19,819 nucleotides of DNA, from assembly GCF_003334315.1 (NCBI RefSeq), contig NZ_QOWR01000071.1; one strand, 5' to 3'. Source of the DNA: Escherichia coli (GTDB taxonomy: Bacteria > Pseudomonadota > Gammaproteobacteria > Enterobacterales > Enterobacteriaceae). The translations under genes and the position numbers were made by a program. Under the pieces are notes generated by a model. That model was not told the DNA's origin. It searched no databases and was given only the letters and a program-made list of their open reading frames with translations. This document shows, piece by piece, positions 1 through 19,819 of this stretch. Positions within the stretch are counted from its first letter, which is position 1; the number at the start of each line of letters is the position of its first letter.

Positions 1-149
1 GGTTGAGAAGCGGTGTAAGTGAACTGCAGTTGCCATGTTTTACGGCAGTGAGAGCAGAGATAGCGCTGATGTCCGGCGGTGCTTTTGCCGTTACGCACCA
101 CCCCGTCAGTAGCTGAACAGGAGGGACAGCTGATAGAAACAGAAGCCAC
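1..149 (-). CDS. insA: IS1 InsA, N-terminal part (partial CDS, runs off window start)
   Basis: GTG start at 149..147 (reverse complement of cac), followed by codons for [48 protein letters not shown] as recalled for InsA. Below the 60-aa track threshold because it is truncated by the window edge. Confidence 0.75.
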
Positions 150-204
150 TGGAGCACCTCAAAAACACCATCATACACTAAATCAGTAAGTTGGCATCAT
201 CACC
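1..204 (-). mobile_element. IS1 insertion sequence, partial (left inverted repeat and insA 5' region); element continues beyond window start
   Basis: Reverse complement of 181-204 reads ggtgatgatgccaacttactgatt, matching the IS1 terminal inverted repeat from memory (one A/C variant); the rest of 1-204 matches the IS1 insA 5' region as I recall it. IS end abuts the yjgL-like frame at 204/205. Confidence 0.85.
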
Positions 205-3308: not shown

Positions 3309-4505
3309 ATGGCTCAAGTTATTAATGAAATGGATGTTCCGTCCCATTCGTTTGTTTTTCATGGCACAGGTGAGAGATATTTTCTTATTTGTGTGGTGAA
3401 TGTGTTGTTAACGATTATAACGCTAGGTATCTATTTACCATGGGCATTAATGAAATGTAAGCGTTATCTCTATGCTAATATGGAAGTTAACGGACAACGA
3501 TTTTCTTATGGAATTACCGGTGGGAATGTTTTTGTTAGTTGTCTTGTTTTTGTTTTTTTCTATTTCGCAATCTTAATGACAGTGTCAGCAGATATGCCGC
3601 TTGTTGGCTGTGTTTTGACTTTGTCACTGTTGGTTTTGCTTATATTTATGGCAGCAAAAGGACTGCGTTATCAGGCCTTGATGACCAGTCTCAACGGCGT
3701 AAGATTTAGTTTTAATTGCTCTTTGAAAGGGTTCTGGTGGGTAACCTTTTTCTTGCCGATTTTAATGGCCATTGGGATGGGGACTGTTTTCTTTATCTCG
3801 ACAAAGATGCTACATGCCAATAGTTCAAGTAGTGTTATTATATCTGTGGTTCTGATGGCAATAGTTGGTATTGTTTCCATTGGTATTTTTAATGGTACTT
3901 TATATAGTCTGGTAATGAGTTTTCTCTGGAGCAATACCAGTTTCGGTATACATCGTTTCAAGGTGAAATTAGATACTACGTATTGTATAAAATATGCCAT
4001 TCTCGCATTTTTAGCTTTATTACCTTTTCTCGCTGTTGCTGGTTATATTATCTTCGATCAAATATTAAATGCGTATGATAGTTTTGTGTATGCAAATGAT
4101 GATATTGAGAATTTACAGCAATTTATGGAAATGCAACGTAAAATGATAATCGCGCAGTTAATCTATTATTTTGGGATTGCTGTTAGCACCAGTTATTTAA
4201 CGGTGTCGTTGCGAAATCATTTTATGAGCAACCTGTCACTGAATGATGGGCGTATTCGTTTTCGCTCAACTTTAACTTACCACGGTATGCTTTATCGCAT
4301 GTGTGCGTTGGTAGTGATATCCGGGATTACGGGCGGTCTGGCTTATCCACTGCTGAAAATATGGATGATTGACTGGCAGGCAAAAAATACGTATTTGCTG
4401 GGCGATTTGGATGACCTTCCTTTAATCAATAAAGAAGAACAACCAGATAAAGGCTTCTTAGCCAGTATTTCACGGGGAATTATGCCTTCTTTACCATTTC
4501 TGTAA
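3309..4505 (+). CDS. yjgN: Inner membrane protein, DUF898 family
   Basis: Multi-pass hydrophobic ORF. Start placed at ATG 3309 (MAQVINEMDVPSHSFVFHGTGERYF) rather than the track start 3282, giving 398 aa as recalled for YjgN. Confidence 0.85.
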   Translation: MAQVINEMDVPSHSFVFHGTGERYFLICVVNVLLTIITLGIYLPWALMKCKRYLYANMEVNGQRFSYGITGGNVFVSCLVFVFFYFAILMTVSADMPLVGCVLTLSLLVLLIFMAAKGLRYQALMTSLNGVRFSFNCSLKGFWWVTFFLPILMAIGMGTVFFISTKMLHANSSSSVIISVVLMAIVGIVSIGIFNGTLYSLVMSFLWSNTSFGIHRFKVKLDTTYCIKYAILAFLALLPFLAVAGYIIFDQILNAYDSFVYANDDIENLQQFMEMQRKMIIAQLIYYFGIAVSTSYLTVSLRNHFMSNLSLNDGRIRFRSTLTYHGMLYRMCALVVISGITGGLAYPLLKIWMIDWQAKNTYLLGDLDDLPLINKEEQPDKGFLASISRGIMPSLPFL

Positions 4506-7889: not shown

Positions 7890-9725
<1,836 letters not shown>

Positions 9726-13792: not shown

Positions 13793-13891
13793 GAGATTTC
13801 CTCCAGTTTCCTGCCTGGAGTATAGGCAACGGCTGTGCACTCTTCACCGCTAAATTCAGCAGATTGCGAGACGCCTTCCAAAGAGATTTAA

Positions 13892-13915
13892 GTGCCGGGC
13901 GACAGGCACCCGGCA
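13892..13915 (-). terminator. Putative hairpin terminator downstream of ahr
   Basis: GC-rich inverted repeat tgccggg / cccggca (13893-13899 / 13909-13915), 7 bp 3' of the ahr stop; the minus-strand flank after it is moderately T-rich. Confidence 0.45.
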
Positions 13916-13921
13916 AAGGGA

Positions 13922-14941
13922 TCAGAAGTCGGCTTTCAGGACCACGCGGTAGCGCGCTTTACCATCGCGTACATGCTGGATGGCGTCGTTAATTTTCGAC
14001 ATCGGGAACAGTTCGGTGGTCGGCGCAACCTTGCTGCGGGCGGCAAAACGCATCAGCTTACGCAGCTCATAAGGCGTGCCGGTAGCAGAACCAGAGACGC
14101 TGCGATCGCCCGCAATTAACGTAAAGGCCGGAACAGACAGCGGCGTGAGAACCGCACCGACCGTATGGAAATTACCGCCATAGGTCAGCGCCTCAAAATA
14201 AGGCTGCCAGTCGAGGCTGACGTTGACGGTGTTGATAATGAGATCAAACTGCCCCGCCAGTGCTTTCAGTGCCTGCGGATCGCGGCTATTCACCACTTTA
14301 TCGGCACCCATCGCCAGTACTTCCTGCTCTTTCGCCGGATTAGAACTAAAGGCCGTCACCTCGCATCCCATTGCGTGCAGAAGTTTTATAGCGATATGCC
14401 CCAGCCCGCCAATACCAATTACCCCAACGCGGCTGGTAGCAGTGATATGGTGCATCAACAGTGGTTTAAAGACCGTGATACCACCACACAACAGCGGCCC
14501 GGCGGACTCGATATCAATATTTTCTGGCAGTGGAATCACCCATTGCCAGTCCGCACGCAACTTCTCGGCAAAACCACCACGATTCATAATTGTTGGCACC
14601 GCACCTTGCTCGCAGTTGATCTGATTACCGCTAATACAGGCGTCGCAGTGACCACAGCTACGCGCCGTCCAGCCAATCCCGACACGCTGACCGACCTGCA
14701 AACCTTTATCCTGCGCGGCGCTCCCGAGTGCCACCACGCGCCCAATCACCTCATGCCCGGCAACCAGCGGATATTGTGAAAATCCCCATTCGTTATCGAT
14801 CATCGACAGATCGGAATGGCAGATCCCGCAGTAATCCACCTGCACTTCAACATCTTGTGGCTTCAGCTCACCGGGATCGTACTCATAAACTTCCAGTTCG
14901 CCGCCCGCTTCTTTTGCGGCATAGCTTTTTATCATCGACAT
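13922..14941 (-). CDS. ahr: NADPH-dependent aldehyde reductase, zinc-type alcohol dehydrogenase family
   Basis: Start at ATG 14941 ([26 protein letters not shown]), 339 aa; contains the Zn-ADH motif [12 protein letters not shown] and the Rossmann motif [10 protein letters not shown]. Lies directly upstream of leuX as yjgB/ahr does in K-12. Confidence 0.9.
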
Positions 14942-15136
14942 TTTTGGGTCCTTCTCTGGTGTTGTTTGGGAAGTGTAGAGCATGGCAGGGCGGGGTGCCT
15001 GGAGTGTGACAAAGGTTACACATCGCGGTATGCAATGCTGAAAATTTCAGCACTTAGCGAGGTGCGAGCAAGCTGGCGCTTGCATGGTGGCGTGCGACAG
15101 GTATAATCCACAACGTTTTCCGCATACCTCTTCAGT

Positions 15137-15221
15137 GCCGAAGTGGCGAAATCGGTAGACGCAGTTGATTCAAAATCAACCGTAGAAATACGTGCCGGTT
15201 CGAGTCCGGCCTTCGGCACCA
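15137..15221 (+). tRNA. leuX: tRNA-Leu (anticodon CAA)
   Basis: GCCGAAGTGGCGAAATCGGTAGACGCAGTTGATTCAAAATCAACCGTAGAAATACGTGCCGGTTCGAGTCCGGCCTTCGGCACCA: cloverleaf with long variable arm, anticodon loop TTCAAAA giving CAA, and 3' CCA. Confidence 0.95.
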
Positions 15222-15234
15222 AAAGTATGTAAAT

Positions 15235-15258
15235 AGACCTCAACTGAGGTCTTTTTTT
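15235..15258 (+). terminator. Intrinsic terminator of leuX
   Basis: Stem agacctc / gaggtct (15235-15241 / 15246-15252) with a 4-nt loop, followed by T7. Confidence 0.85.
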
Positions 15259-15407
15259 ATGCCTGAAATCCAGTATTTACCTACCTTTCCCGCTATATTA
15301 ACTCTCTCAAGGTCAACCGACATCAACGTACATCTACCAACACATGTTGGTACAGATGATGGTATTTCCGGTTCGATAATGCTTGTACCAACAGGGAGGG
15401 GATAAGC

Positions 15408-16673
15408 ATGGCGTTAACAGATATCAAGGTCAGAACAGCCAAGCCAATGGATAAGCAGTACAAACTGACCGATGGCAGCGGTATGCACCTGCTTGTCCAT
15501 CCTAATGGTTCTAAGTACTGGCGTTTGCAGTACCGTTATGATGGCAAGCAAAAGATGTTGGCACTTGGGATTTACCCTGAAATAACACTGGCGGATGCCA
15601 GAGCACGTCGTGACGACGCGCGTAAGCTGCTAGCGAATGGCGTCGATCCGGGAGACAAAAAGAAAAATGATAAGGTTGAACAGAGTAAAGCACGAACCTT
15701 TAAAGAGGTCGCGATCGAGTGGCATGGCACCAATAAAAAGTGGTCTGAAGATCACGCCCATCGTGTGCTAAAAAGCTTGGAAGATAATCTCTTCGCGGCA
15801 CTTGGTGAGCGTAATATCGCTGAGCTAAAAACTCGTGATTTATTAGTACCCATTAAAGCCGTAGAGACATCTGGACGTCTTGAAGTGGCTTCCCGCCTTC
15901 AACAGCGCACCACGGCCATCATGCGTTATGCAGTGCAAAGCGGGTTAATTGATTACAATCCGGCGCAAGAGATGGCGGGGGCGGTTGCTTCCAGTAATCG
16001 ACAGCATCGTCCGGCGCTGGAGTTAAGGCGTATCCCTGAGTTGCTTGAGAAAATAGACAGCTATACCGGCAGGCCGTTAACCCGCTGGGCGACAGAACTC
16101 ACTCTGCTTATCTTTATTCGGTCCAGTGAGCTGCGTTTTGCTCGCTGGTCAGAAATCGATTTTGAAACGTCAATGTGGACTATCCCGCCCGAGCGAGAGC
16201 CTATTCCTGATGTGAAACATTCTCAGCGAGGATCAAAGATGCATACACCGCATCTGGTGCCGCTTTCAAAGCAGGCGCTGGCGATCCTGAAGCAGATAAA
16301 ACAGTTCTGTGGCGAACATGAGCTGATTTTTATTGGCGATCACGATCCGCGTAAGCCCATGAGCGAGAACACGGTAAACAGTGCGCTACGGGTGATGGGT
16401 TATGACACTAAGGTTGAAGTTTGCGGCCACGGCTTCCGTACAATGGCCTGTAGTTCGTTAATTGAGTCAGGACTATGGTCGAAGGATGCGGTGGAAAGGC
16501 AGATGAGCCATATGGAACGCAATTCGGTGAGGGCGGCGTATATCCATAAAGCGGAACATCTGGATGAGCGCAAGCTGATGTTGCGGTGGTGGGCGGATTT
16601 TCTGGATGCGAACCGGGAGAAAGGGATTACGCCGTTTGACTACGCGAAGATCAATCGGGGTAATGGCGAGTGA
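15408..16673 (+). CDS. P4-type tyrosine integrase (site-specific recombinase) at the leuX tRNA
   Basis: 421-aa ORF with strong SD (agggagggg) before the ATG; catalytic-domain signatures HGFR and RAAYIH (His-X-X-Arg ... Tyr); begins about 190 bp after the tRNA 3' end, the typical layout for P4-like integrative islands. Confidence 0.9.
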   Translation: MALTDIKVRTAKPMDKQYKLTDGSGMHLLVHPNGSKYWRLQYRYDGKQKMLALGIYPEITLADARARRDDARKLLANGVDPGDKKKNDKVEQSKARTFKEVAIEWHGTNKKWSEDHAHRVLKSLEDNLFAALGERNIAELKTRDLLVPIKAVETSGRLEVASRLQQRTTAIMRYAVQSGLIDYNPAQEMAGAVASSNRQHRPALELRRIPELLEKIDSYTGRPLTRWATELTLLIFIRSSELRFARWSEIDFETSMWTIPPEREPIPDVKHSQRGSKMHTPHLVPLSKQALAILKQIKQFCGEHELIFIGDHDPRKPMSENTVNSALRVMGYDTKVEVCGHGFRTMACSSLIESGLWSKDAVERQMSHMERNSVRAAYIHKAEHLDERKLMLRWWADFLDANREKGITPFDYAKINRGNGE

Positions 16674-16714
16674 GTTGAATGCCGTTATTCCTCGGCTGAT
16701 GTTTAAATTTAAAA

Positions 16715-16757
16715 GACCAACCAGCCCGCTTAGGACTGGTTGGTCGCTGTATTTTTT
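16715..16757 (+). terminator. Intrinsic terminator after the integrase gene
   Basis: Perfect 10-bp stem gaccaaccag / ctggttggtc (16715-16724 / 16736-16745) followed by a T-run at 16751-16757. Confidence 0.8.
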
Positions 16758-16877
16758 CAGAATTCCATCTGCCAGGTACAGAGCCGTCAGGCAAAATGGA
16801 TGTCTGCAATAATGCCTTGAATGTACATATAGTTGCGAGCATCATCGCAAATATGTGCTCATGGATTCTCCAACGCA

Positions 16878-17756
16878 ATGACCTCTGACAAAACCCTAAA
16901 ACAAGCGATATCAAATATCACCATCTGGCGCAAAGGCGAACAACGTGCGCCACATAAGCCATTATTGCTGCTGTACGTTCTCTCACACTATCGGCAGGGT
17001 CATGGTCGCATGTTTAACTATGGTTCTGAAATCTACGAGCCCCTGTTGGATCTCCTGGAACGTTATGGACCGCAGCGCCGTGACCAGCGCCCGGACATGC
17101 CGTTCTGGCGTCTGAAGGGCGATGGCTTCTGGGAACTACATAACGCGGAACTGTGCTCAACCAGTGGTAGCCGCCAGCCGCCCCGACGTGAACTCATTGA
17201 ATATAATGTCGCTGGTGGATTTGATGCCGATAATTTTGCGTTGGTGGCAAAAAATCACAGGTTAATTGATACGCTGGCTCAGCAGCTCCTGGAGGCGCAT
17301 TTCCCGGCCAGTATTCAGGAAGAGATCGCTGACGAGATGGGTTTTGATATTCGCACCTCTCTCCGTCAACGCGATCCGAAGTTTCGCCAGATGGTGCTAC
17401 GTGCTTACAATTATCAGTGCGCTATCTGCGGCTTTAACATGCGCCACGACAATGCGCCGATTGCTCTGGAAGCCGCTCATATCAGATGGAAGCAGCACCA
17501 TGGCCCTTGCGAAGTACCTAATGGCCTGGCATTGTGTGCAATCCACCATAAAGCGTTTGATCGCGGTTCGATTGGCCTGGATGAAAATATGCGTGTGGTG
17601 GTTTCCGGTGCGGTAAATGGTGGTGGAGTGGTACAGCGACTGTTCTGGGATTTTGCGGGAAAGGCGATTGCGTTGCCACCGGTTAAAGAAAATTATCCGG
17701 GCGAGCAGTTTGTTGAATGGCACAGAAAAGAGGTGTTCAGAGGAGAGGGAATCTGA
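16878..17756 (+). CDS. Two-domain protein: N-terminal uncharacterised (possible DNA-modification reader) domain fused to a C-terminal HNH nuclease; candidate type IV-like restriction or defence nuclease
   Basis: HNH motif readable directly in the C-terminus: YQCAICGF ... LEAAHIRW ... NGLALCAIHHKAFD. The N-terminal roughly 170 aa has no HNH features but distinctive motifs (PHKPLLLLYVL, MPFWRLKGDGFWEL). Start chosen at the first ATG (16878); the track ORF begins at a TTG at 16833. First cargo gene after the integrase. Confidence 0.6.
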   Translation: MTSDKTLKQAISNITIWRKGEQRAPHKPLLLLYVLSHYRQGHGRMFNYGSEIYEPLLDLLERYGPQRRDQRPDMPFWRLKGDGFWELHNAELCSTSGSRQPPRRELIEYNVAGGFDADNFALVAKNHRLIDTLAQQLLEAHFPASIQEEIADEMGFDIRTSLRQRDPKFRQMVLRAYNYQCAICGFNMRHDNAPIALEAAHIRWKQHHGPCEVPNGLALCAIHHKAFDRGSIGLDENMRVVVSGAVNGGGVVQRLFWDFAGKAIALPPVKENYPGEQFVEWHRKEVFRGEGI

Positions 17757-17825
17757 AATAGATTGATTTTTTTCTTTAGATTATTAAGTTAGTTATTGAT
17801 AACGGCTTTATTATGTGGAGGGTAT

Positions 17826-18146
17826 ATGGTTAGGCGTAATGTGAAATGGTTGTCTTTCTTTATTTTTATTTCTATTCTGTCTTTATTTCGCGGGTGGTCG
17901 TTTATTAAACAGTTTCATCTGTCGGCATTTACTGTACTTGCTGTATTTATTTATGCGTTGTATAGCTATATAAGAATTTCAACTTTTGTAAATAAGATGG
18001 AGTTAAATAATAAATTTATTGTTTTTCTTAGGTTGAAGAAATTTGTTTTGTTTTTTAAGCAAGGGACTAAGCTCACTATTCTGGAAAGAAATATTGTCTT
18101 TTTTTCAGTTTATATACCTTGTCTGCTTATCATGTGCTTATATTAG
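17826..18146 (+). CDS. Hypothetical small hydrophobic protein (about 106 aa, 2 predicted TM segments); may be a composition artefact
   Basis: ATG at 17826 preceded by GGAGG (17817-17821); hydrophobic stretches LSFFIFISILSLF and AFTVLAVFIYALYSYI. The region is very AT-rich, which favours F/I/L codons, so coding status is uncertain. Confidence 0.3.
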   Translation: MVRRNVKWLSFFIFISILSLFRGWSFIKQFHLSAFTVLAVFIYALYSYIRISTFVNKMELNNKFIVFLRLKKFVLFFKQGTKLTILERNIVFFSVYIPCLLIMCLY

Positions 18147-18447
18147 GTAAAATGCATGTCATTAATAAATGGTTAAATGTGGGTTTGTATAACTAATTCA
18201 TAGGTGTCATTCCAGTTTTATTAGTTAAATTTGTCGTTCTGCTGCTTCAATGTGCCGAAAATAATTTTTTGTTCTTAAATAAGTATTGGCTGATAAATTG
18301 TCTCTCCTTTAATAAAATTTGAAGTTGTTCACGGTTTATAGGGTTCTTCAATTATTAATGTTTTTTCTTTGTTAGCATCTTTCCTCAATGCTATGTATCT
18401 TTATAAAGATACGACCTAATCTTATTTGTCATTTTTAAAATCCTGTA

Positions 18448-18944
18448 TTATATTGTGAAGTATAATAAGCTAAGGAACGAGCCGAAAATAAAAACATGTC
18501 TAAATATTGCTAATCCAACCAGTTCATCAAGGCGACAGCCTTTCCATGATGCATTCCTCCAGCCTAGCTGAAACAATGTTGACCATGATAGAATAAATAT
18601 TCCGGTGGCGCTAACGGCGTCTTTCCATTCTAATGGATAGATAATCCGAAATTTCCCTGAGTAAAATCCAATCGCAATTACTATAAAAAGCACACCCAAC
18701 ATTATTAGCACTGACGCAAGAATGGACTTTCTTAAGTCATCACAATACTCTTCGAGGGAGTGTTTGTGATCATCTGGATTTAGACTGTATTTCCCCGCCT
18801 CAAGTTTTCTCTTATATTCATCCTTCTCAAGTTCAAAAGCCATCTTATTGATAGCACCAAGCGTAATAAATTTTTCCTTGTTGAAGAAAAAATAAAACAT
18901 TGCTTTATAAATATTTTCTTTTTTAGGTAGTTGTGCTGTGTTCA
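18448..18944 (-). CDS. Hypothetical membrane protein (about 165 aa; soluble charged N-terminal part plus 3 predicted TM helices)
   Basis: ORF on the minus strand with ATG at 18944 (MNTAQLPKKENIYKAMFYFFF); the track's longer version starts at a TTG at 18981. Predicted TM segments ILASVLIMLGVLFIVIAIGFY, GIFILSWSTLFQLGW and LVGLAIFRHVFIFGSFLSLLYF. No recognisable family from sequence alone. Confidence 0.4.
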
Positions 18945-18970
18945 TATTCTCATAAAAAATAAGTAACGAT

Positions 18971-18993
18971 GTTGACAGCAAGAAGCTGTCAAC
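18971..18993 (-). other. Perfect 9-bp stem hairpin between the hsdR-like remnant and the membrane-protein gene (possible terminator or leader structure)
   Basis: gttgacagc (18971-18979) / gctgtcaac (18985-18993) with a 5-nt loop, 8 nt 3' of the hsdR-like stop; the T-run lies 9 nt further on, so this is not a textbook intrinsic terminator. Confidence 0.4.
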
Positions 18994-19000
18994 ATGAAAT

Positions 19001-19366
19001 TCACATCGTCCAATGATTCGAAATAACTTCCGCTTGTTTCAAAATTAACTCCACCGCACCCGGCGTTTTATCTGGCGGATACTTATACCGACGCAGAGTC
19101 TGGCGAACCAAGATACGCAGCCTTGCACGAACGCTCTCGCGCACCTGCCAGTCAACGGTAGTTGATTGCCTCAACTTCAAGGTGACTTCTATCGCCAGTT
19201 TCTTAAGCACCTCATCCCCTAACTCTCGGACGGCACTTTCGTTTTCTGCCAGTGCGTCGTAGAAAGCGATTTCGTCAGGATTCAGGCCAAGCGCATCATC
19301 ACGCTCCATTGCAGACTGAAAATCCTTCGCCATCTGGATCAGCTCTTCAATCACCTGCGCCGTCTC
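19001..19366 (-). pseudogene. 3' remnant (about 122 codons) of a type I restriction enzyme R-subunit-like gene, truncated by IS1 insertion
   Basis: ORF ...LNPDEIAFYDALAENESAVRELGDEVLKKLAIEVTLKLRQSTTVDWQVRESVRARLRILVRQTLRRYKYPPDK... resembles the conserved HsdR C-terminal domain (DUF3387-like) as I recall it. The frame stays open upstream right to the IS1 boundary at 19366/19367, as expected for an insertion into a longer gene. Confidence 0.5.
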
Positions 19367-19819
19367 GGTAATGGTCCCAACTTATTGATAGTGTTTTATG
19401 TTCAGATAATGCCCGATTACTTTGTCATGCAGCTCCACCGATTTTGAGAACGACAGCGACTTCCGTCCCAGCCGTGCCAGGTGCTGCCTCAGATTCAGGT
19501 TATGCCGCTCAATTCGCTGCGTATATCGCTTGCTGATTACGTGCAGCTTTCCCTTCAGGCGGGATTCATACAGCGGCCAGCCATCCGTCATCCATATCAC
19601 CACGTCAAAGGGTGACAGCAGGCTCATAAGACGCCCCAGCGTCGCCATCGTGCGTTCACCGAATACGTGCGCAACAACCGTCTTCCGGAGCCTGTCATAC
19701 GCGTAAAACAGCCAGCGCTGGCGCGATTTAGCCCCGACATAGCCCCACTGTTCGTCCATTTCCGCGCAGACGATGACGTCACTGCCCGGCTGTATGCGCG
19801 AGGTTACCGACTGCGGCCT
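19367..19819 (-). mobile_element. IS1 insertion sequence, partial (right inverted repeat and insB); same orientation as the copy at 1-204; continues beyond window end
   Basis: 19367 onward reads ggtaatggtcccaacttattgatagtgttttatgttcagataatg, the reverse complement of the IS1 right end from memory (variant at 2-3 positions); the remainder to the window edge matches insB. Confidence 0.85.
19382..19819 (-). CDS. insB: IS1 InsB (transposase C-terminal part; partial CDS truncated by window end)
   Basis: Translation ...[125 protein letters not shown] matches IS1 InsB; the frame continues open to the window edge. Confidence 0.9.

Follow-up and report, generated by a model that had tools for sequence, protein, structure and literature searches.

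The nuclease considered here is encoded in a leuX island within a 19,819-nucleotide stretch of Escherichia coli DNA (contig NZ_QOWR01000071.1, assembly GCF_003334315.1; the whole stretch is referred to below as the window), and the systems to which it is most readily compared are restriction enzymes that join a sulfur-binding domain (SBD), a reader of phosphorothioate (PT) DNA, to an HNH nuclease domain. ScoMcrA of Streptomyces coelicolor (PDB 5ZMM, 5ZMN, 5ZMO) has a homologous SBD fold and shares with the window nuclease a His-(Lys/Arg)-Pro motif, a central cavity proline, and a C-terminal HNH domain; however, at 561 aa versus 292 aa it carries an additional N-terminal region and an SRA domain (SBD-SRA-HNH), and the two SBDs have a sequence identity of only ~24%. 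ScoMcrA is further set apart by its preference for GpsGCC, its requirement for Mn2+, and its variable cutting distance. Its sulfur cavity is floored by the P165 pyrrolidine ring and walled by methylene or methyl groups from H116, R117, Y164, and A168, with R117 contributing a salt bridge from a position that is occupied by Lys in most homologs (Liu et al., 2018; PMC6224610).

SprMcrA resembles the window nuclease in its two-domain SBD-HNH layout, and the SprMcrA and Hga SBDs (PDB 7CC9, 7CCD, 7CCJ, 8H0L) are homologous to that of the window nuclease at <20% identity. SprMcrA differs in being Mn2+-dependent and promiscuous (GpsGCC > GpsATC > GpsAAC), with a variable cutting distance, while SBD_Hga, in which H25, K26, L75, P76, and H79 take the equivalent cavity roles, is likewise sequence-promiscuous (PMC10602919). 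TagI and VcaM4I (PDB 6GHS, 6YEX), which are HNH_2-type modification-dependent enzymes, possess a homologous C-terminal HNH domain but have N-terminal readers of their own that show no match to the window N-domain.

The enzyme EcoWI is Mg2+-dependent and specific for GpsAAC/GpsTTC, and it cuts at N7/N6 to leave a one-nucleotide 3' overhang; fully and hemi-modified sites are both cut, the protein is a dimer in solution, and it becomes promiscuous with Mn2+ (Lutz et al., 2020; PMC7461809). In vivo, EcoWI abolished transformation by a dnd+ plasmid (PMC7461809). Proteins of the EcoWI type have no SRA domain, and because the cleavage distance is fixed EcoWI has been proposed to be Type IIM/IIS-like and not Type IV (Lutz et al., 2020; PMC7461809). 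It is in use as a reagent for mapping phosphorothioate sites (EcoWI-seq; PMC9521924).

A protein of E. coli W and its derivative LY180 (WP_000199891, 291 aa; hereafter the W allele) is the nearest characterized relative. Its RefSeq CDS in LY180 occupies 4690841–4691716. The GenBank entry CP006584.1 presumably corresponds to the RefSeq record NC_022364.1. The DNA synthesized by Liu et al. (2018) comprised the LY180 gene and 504 bp upstream, at CP006584.1 4690337–4691716 (PMC6224610); since this fragment and the CDS share their 3' terminus (4691716), the protein studied there is WP_000199891. Its SBD (residues 1–170) bound Rp but not Sp PT-DNA in electrophoretic mobility shift (EMSA) and fluorescence polarization assays, mutation of the cavity proline weakened binding, and the full-length protein, expressed from its own upstream region, lowered transformation by a plasmid bearing the Salmonella dnd cluster ~1000-fold (PMC6224610). 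No activity against phage, as distinct from restriction of plasmids, is described in the cited literature. The computed mass of WP_000199891 is 33,410 Da. The "W" in EcoWI presumably stands for strain W, following restriction-enzyme naming. A predicted mass of 33.4 kDa is given for EcoWI (PMC7461809), and neither Lutz et al. (2020) nor Yang et al. (2022) provides an accession or sequence for it; on the strength of enzyme name, mass, and species, EcoWI is very probably WP_000199891.

The leuX Island in the Window

The nuclease gene is the first gene 3' of the integrase of the leuX island. The features of the region are as follows, with the basis of each in parentheses.

15137–15221, plus strand: tRNA-Leu(CAA), leuX, the island attachment site (ARAGORN; same gene order in E. 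coli W)
15408–16673, plus strand: tyrosine recombinase (integrase), 421 aa (ORF; NCBIfam PRK09692, E = 3.5e-76; RefSeq)
16715–16745, unstranded: 13-pair G+C-rich hairpin between the integrase and nuclease genes (terminator scan; sequence)
16878–17756, plus strand: gene assigned to an SBD-HNH phosphorothioate-dependent restriction endonuclease (ORF; NF045808; RefSeq name)
16878–17387, plus strand: SBD, residues about 1–170 (phmmer; profile search; Foldseek)
17418–17582, plus strand: HNH nuclease core, residues 181–235 (Pfam HNH_2; TagI/VcaM4I matches)
19001–19354, minus strand: truncated hsdR, the gene for type I restriction subunit R (PADLOC REase_I, E = 6.5e-32)
19367–19819: IS1 copy that cuts off hsdR (transposase NCBIfam NF033558; blastn against strain 13C1065T)

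The initial annotation had described the gene as lying behind an integrase at a tRNA hotspot and close to a type I restriction-modification (R-M) remnant, and the tRNA, the integrase, and the hsdR remnant were all found. Only the C-terminal 117 aa of HsdR are left (REase_I profile positions 912–1024 of 1029), and an AT-rich 1.2 kb separates this remnant from the nuclease gene. For a 165-aa gene (18448–18945, minus strand) and a 116-aa ORF (17796–18146) there was no NCBIfam or PADLOC match. The integrase-nuclease pair is conserved: over 15717–17747 its DNA is ~94% identical to that of E. coli W, the similarity holding only from window position 15717 onward. Cargo downstream of the pair is variable: here it consists of an AT-rich hypothetical gene and the hsdR remnant, and in E. 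coli W of a complete type I R-M system together with a 5'-nucleotidase gene and hypothetical genes. Neither the window nor the 37.6-kb region of a near-identical strain contains dnd or ssp genes.

The hairpin at 16715–16745 is bordered by T/A runs and is probably a bidirectional terminator that closes the integrase transcript; the nuclease gene should therefore have its own promoter, in 16746–16877. A sigma-70 consensus scan of the 204-bp intergenic region 5' of the nuclease gene found no site. For the W allele, 504 bp of upstream DNA drove functional expression (PMC6224610).

The Nuclease Gene and Its Family

According to the ORF list and translation, the ORF at 16878–17756 runs from an ATG to a TGA and encodes 292 aa. 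An in-frame TTG lies further upstream at 16833 and would give a protein of 307 aa; this start was rejected, RefSeq starting at the ATG and position 2 of the NF045808 profile corresponding to residue 6. All of the motifs that the initial annotation had quoted as an HNH signature and as marks of a separate N-terminal domain were located in the 292-aa ORF, with PHKPLLLLYVL beginning at residue 25 and FWRLKGDGFWEL at residue 76, and with CAIC (181–184), AAHI (199–202), and NGLALCAIHH (215–224) toward the C-terminus.

The NCBIfam model NF045808, "phosphorothioated DNA-binding restriction endonuclease," is matched with a score of 444.8 bits, the curated cut-off being 180, and the alignment is end to end, residues 6–288 of the nuclease pairing with profile positions 2–284 of 284; the RefSeq product name is the same phrase. 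Clustering at 50% identity gave 523 clusters for the family (E ≤ 1e-30), nearly all with proteins of ~290–310 aa and an identical two-domain span. Because an identical protein is on record in 458 contigs and the family has 523 clusters, the ORF is a real gene and not a chance reading frame. Among 5,426 complete E. coli genomes, megablast found the gene in 239, in 187 of them at a coverage of at least 80%.

The Sulfur-Binding Domain

Against PDB sequences, phmmer matched residues 4–142 of the nuclease to the ScoMcrA SBD (5zmo, E = 3e-6) and also found the SprMcrA SBD. A profile for remote searches, built from 114 homologs with 33–58% identity to the nuclease, recovered the SBD chains of ScoMcrA (4.9e-24), SprMcrA (3e-16), and SBD_Hga (1e-9); its alignment with ScoMcrA was limited to the SBD part, ScoMcrA residues 97–235. 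The AlphaFold2 model made from the 114-homolog alignment had a mean pLDDT of 95.9 and a pTM of 0.91, and its best Foldseek match in the PDB was 5zmo_A, the ScoMcrA SBD with phosphorothioated DNA (target-normalized TM 0.81, rmsd 2.8 Å, 156 columns), followed in rank by the SprMcrA and Hga SBDs and by two restriction enzymes with HNH domains, VcaM4I and TagI.

In the phmmer alignment, P75, H26, K27, M74, and R78 of the nuclease correspond to P165, H116, R117, Y164, and A168 of ScoMcrA, and a sulfur cavity made up of H26, K27, M74, P75, and R78 is predicted on this basis. All 114 homologs have the proline at P75, and at least 90% of them keep H26 and K27. The lid tyrosine of ScoMcrA, Y164, is M74 in the window nuclease. 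This replacement presents no difficulty, because Y164 is kept in only a subset of homologs and the Y164M substitution strengthens binding (Liu et al., 2018; PMC6224610).

N-terminal of M74, P75, and R78 is a basic loop with R67, R68, and R71, in which R67 and R68 align with the acidic E156 and D157 of ScoMcrA in the phmmer alignment; in a published alignment (PMC7470945), a basic residue of SprMcrA, R73, stands at the position of R67. Substitution of both acidic residues in ScoMcrA (E156R/D157R) conferred binding and restriction of GpsAAC DNA (Yu et al., 2020; PMC7470945). By analogy, the native R67/R68 loop would be consistent with a GpsAAC/GpsTTC preference.

The HNH Nuclease Domain

Pfam HNH_2 (PF13391) matches residues 181–235 with E = 1.1e-9 and is the only domain that Pfam reports in the 292-aa protein, no SRA domain being found. 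Residues 174–248 align with the TagI HNH domain in the phmmer search of PDB sequences, and the profile search matched both TagI (6ghs, 5e-11) and VcaM4I (6yex, 1.2e-6), each of which was also matched by fold with Foldseek. In the 114 homologs C181, H201, and N215 are invariant, and C184, C220, H223, and H224 are conserved in at least 90%. C181, C184, C220, and H223 are the predicted zinc ligands and H201, N215, and H224 the predicted catalytic or metal-binding residues. The cavity, HNH catalytic, and zinc residues are all present in the window nuclease.

The initial annotation had suggested, from the letters alone, a likeness to SBD-HNH phosphorothioate-dependent nucleases related to ScoMcrA, and this proved right at each level of comparison. 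Profile and Pfam searches of the two domains gave a full-length match to NF045808, HNH_2 in the C-terminal part, and SBD matches down to 4.9e-24; structure prediction and Foldseek set the N-domain on the ScoMcrA, SprMcrA, and Hga SBDs, the first with the TM of 0.81, and the C-domain on the HNH domains of TagI and VcaM4I.

Proposed Function and Alternative Readings

The W allele shares with the window nuclease the SBD-HNH architecture, the RefSeq product name, and the genomic position, the order in E. coli W and LY180 being ahr, tRNA-Leu, integrase, and then nuclease. The window protein is identical to WP_000199891 at 288 of 290 residues, differing by H37 and M45, each in place of Leu, and at the C-terminus, which reads GEGI (292 aa) as against GEH (291 aa). 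We put the probability that the window gene encodes a stand-alone SBD-HNH modification-dependent restriction endonuclease, an allele of the W enzyme, at about 93%. The ORF, its architecture, fold, and key residues, the 99% identity to the W allele, and the genomic position were observed in this DNA; PT binding, stereospecificity, and in vivo restriction are supplied by the literature on the W allele, and cleavage geometry, metal dependence, and the dimeric state by the data on EcoWI.

As a W-type enzyme, the nuclease would dock through its SBD on double-stranded DNA and bury the Rp sulfur of the phosphorothioate in a small non-polar surface cavity, with P75 as its floor and with walls of methylene groups contributed by H26, K27, M74, and R78; K27 would in addition be salt-bridged to the phosphorothioate. 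The neighboring bases would be read by SBD loops, giving the preference for GpsAAC/GpsTTC. The active form would be a dimer, and the HNH domain would cut both strands at a fixed short distance downstream, at N7/N6, with Mg2+ and with a one-nucleotide 3' overhang as the product. Incoming DNA from dnd+ donors, whether plasmids, islands, or phage, would be destroyed, while host DNA that carries no phosphorothioate would be spared; the host would be safe because its own DNA is not phosphorothioated. The suggestion in the initial annotation that this is a single-gene defense system in the leuX island agrees with every test made here and with the restriction of a dnd plasmid by the W allele (PMC6224610).

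The same family assignment would hold if the window allele were inactive or had a shifted sequence preference owing to H37, M45, or the altered C-terminus. There are three differences from the published W allele, the structural model puts residues 37 and 45 within or immediately beyond the helix that begins with H26 and K27, and sequence preference does vary among the published SBD homologs. Against this, the frame is intact with every cavity and catalytic residue present, positions 37 and 45 fall outside both the invariant or ≥90% conserved columns and the published cavity residues, and an identical protein in 458 contigs is unlike what is seen with a decaying gene. An altered allele is therefore very unlikely, and H37, M45, and the different last two residues presumably change nothing relative to the W allele.

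A Type IV enzyme of the McrA type, dependent on methyl- or hydroxymethyl-cytosine and not a reader of phosphorothioate, is suggested by PADLOC, which has no dedicated model for an SBD-HNH nuclease and returned only a generic HNH model and a weak match (E = 1e-5) to mREase_IV, its "Type IV methyl-directed restriction enzyme" model; no homology to DptF/G/H or SspE was indicated by PADLOC, these being its only two models to match. ScoMcrA, moreover, also cuts Dcm-methylated and 5hmC DNA. However, the mREase_IV match covers residues 4–142 and profile positions 94–233 of 560, which is the same region that aligns with residues 95–234 of full-length ScoMcrA, its SBD part, and the nuclease consists of SBD and HNH only, with neither an SRA nor an NEco domain. 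The NEco domain of EcoKMcrA had no sequence match, and the EcoKMcrA structure (6ghc) came only at Foldseek ranks 19–20 (rmsd 13–18 Å, probability 0.75), a weak fold match in which the N-domain was not superposed. We regard an McrA-type cytosine reader as extremely improbable. The description in the initial annotation of a modification-dependent Type IV enzyme stands as to modification dependence, which is in line with NF045808, but not as to the Type IV label, given the Type IIM/IIS-like classification proposed for EcoWI (PMC7461809).

HNH nucleases are frequent in homing elements. A homing or selfish HNH endonuclease, or an island-stabilizing toxin, in place of a defense enzyme would accord with a gene inside an integrative island directly after its integrase, but next to no probability attaches to it, as the gene has no intron or intein around it, structures are known for homologs of its modification-reading N-domain, the full architecture is kept over hundreds of clusters, and the W allele when expressed was non-lethal and blocked modified DNA selectively.

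The initial annotation had proposed an undescribed specificity for the case that the N-domain is not a known reader fold. This is not upheld: the N-domain maps confidently to a characterized family, and published data exist for an allele with 99% identity. The window gene is an already known kind of enzyme, and the novelty hoped for earlier is absent.

The leuX Site and Phosphorothioate Writer Islands

That dnd islands occur at a tRNA gene for Leu has been noted earlier (Ho et al., 2015). In strain 55989 the leuX site holds a dptFGH-dndBCDE island, that is, a PT writer with its own restriction partner; the integrase of this island is 92% identical (aa) to the window integrase, and a remnant of an integrase 3' end lies immediately 5' of dptF. 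The dndC gene was found in 207 of the 5,426 genomes, a frequency close to that of the nuclease gene, and among the genomes listed one, EC7, was common to the nuclease and dndC matches. In EC7, which is dnd+, the match is a scar only, made up of the integrase 3' end and 86 nt from the start of the nuclease gene.

These observations hint at mutual exclusion between writer islands and reader-nuclease islands at the leuX hotspot. A stronger proposal, that leuX is a two-state "epigenetic incompatibility" locus where gaining either a PT writer or a PT-dependent nuclease forces loss of the other, is put forward tentatively and is on balance unlikely to hold; such a relationship between writer and nuclease at leuX was not found stated in the cited literature.

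Significance

The enzyme encoded in the window is one already named by NCBI annotation, and binding and in vivo restriction have been published for a near-identical allele. It is useful as a calibration, since an identification made from raw sequence proved correct. The leuX locus is a single tRNA hotspot that carries opposing cargoes, a "writer" or a "reader-nuclease," in different strains, and these opposing cargoes may shape which E. coli lineages exchange DNA.

Nuclease module and the PT writer island at leuX

In E. coli 55989 (NC_011748.1), the ahr-leuX site that carries the integrase and nuclease in the window (15137-17756) is occupied by a dptFGH-dndBCDE phosphorothioate (PT) writer/restriction island (positions 14184-33922 of the 55989 locus, L004). 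The integrase preceding this island is 92% identical to that of the window (383 of 416 aa), and an additional integrase 3' remnant lies immediately upstream of dptF (L004 18706-18847). From this arrangement, leuX looks like a single hotspot that takes either the PT writer or the PT-dependent nuclease as its cargo.

A dnd+ strain, E. coli EC7 (NZ_CP192729.1; dndC at 879791-881425 of the record), has the integrase-nuclease module reduced to a scar (positions 3610-4087 of the EC7 locus, L005) that runs from the 3' end of the integrase across the intergenic region into the nuclease gene, of which the first 86 nt remain, with 92% identity to window 16488-16963; the scar is annotated as a pseudogene. 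This one genome fits the idea that dnd and an intact nuclease are incompatible.

Among the matches listed, many E. coli genomes retain nothing of the nuclease gene but its first 292 nt, at 97-98% identity (for example NZ_CP058596.1, 103067-103358), mostly annotated as hypothetical protein. These fragments are recurring N-terminal pieces of the SBD.

Integrase and intergenic spacer

The window integrase (15408-16673) was compared with those of E. coli W (positions 14675-15943 of the W locus, L003) and 55989 (L004 14455-15720). Its N-terminal ~110 aa resemble the integrase of the 55989 dnd island, and the remainder matches that of E. coli W almost residue for residue; over the whole protein it shares 92% identity with the former and 84% with the latter, and megablast identity to E. 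coli W begins only at window 15717. Judged from these alignments, the gene is evidently a mosaic of 55989-like and W-like parts. The spacer between integrase and nuclease contains a likely bidirectional terminator:

16715-16745, hairpin with a perfect 13-bp stem, eight G-C pairs and A/T runs on both sides

Region downstream of the nuclease and window ends

Downstream of the nuclease, window 17757-19000 is AT-rich, with 28-38% G+C against ~52% in the nuclease gene, and both ends of the window (the 19001-19819 side and 1-204) are cut by IS1 copies. The near-identical strain 13C1065T also has an IS1, but at another position than the copy at 1-204. The features concerned are:

17796-18146, plus strand, 116-aa ORF, probably spurious
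18448-18945, minus strand, 165-aa hypothetical protein that looks membrane-associated
19367-19819, minus strand, IS1, truncating hsdR (type I restriction subunit R), of which the last 117 codons are left
1-204, minus strand, IS1 inside a hypothetical gene

Neither ORF had a match in NCBIfam or PADLOC. By megablast, at least 80% of the stretch formed by the AT-rich region and the hsdR remnant (17757-19366) is present in 61 of the 5,426 complete E. coli genomes.

Other differences from related strains

E. coli W and 55989 carry the idnRTODK operon for L-idonate catabolism between yjgR and ahr, whereas in the window (~13831-13922) and in 13C1065T the operon is missing and ahr directly follows yjgR. 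The holC-pepA intergenic region (7910-8205) includes tandem ~98 bp units that are 91% alike, one fewer than in 13C1065T, and the corresponding spacer of E. coli W is even shorter than that of the window.
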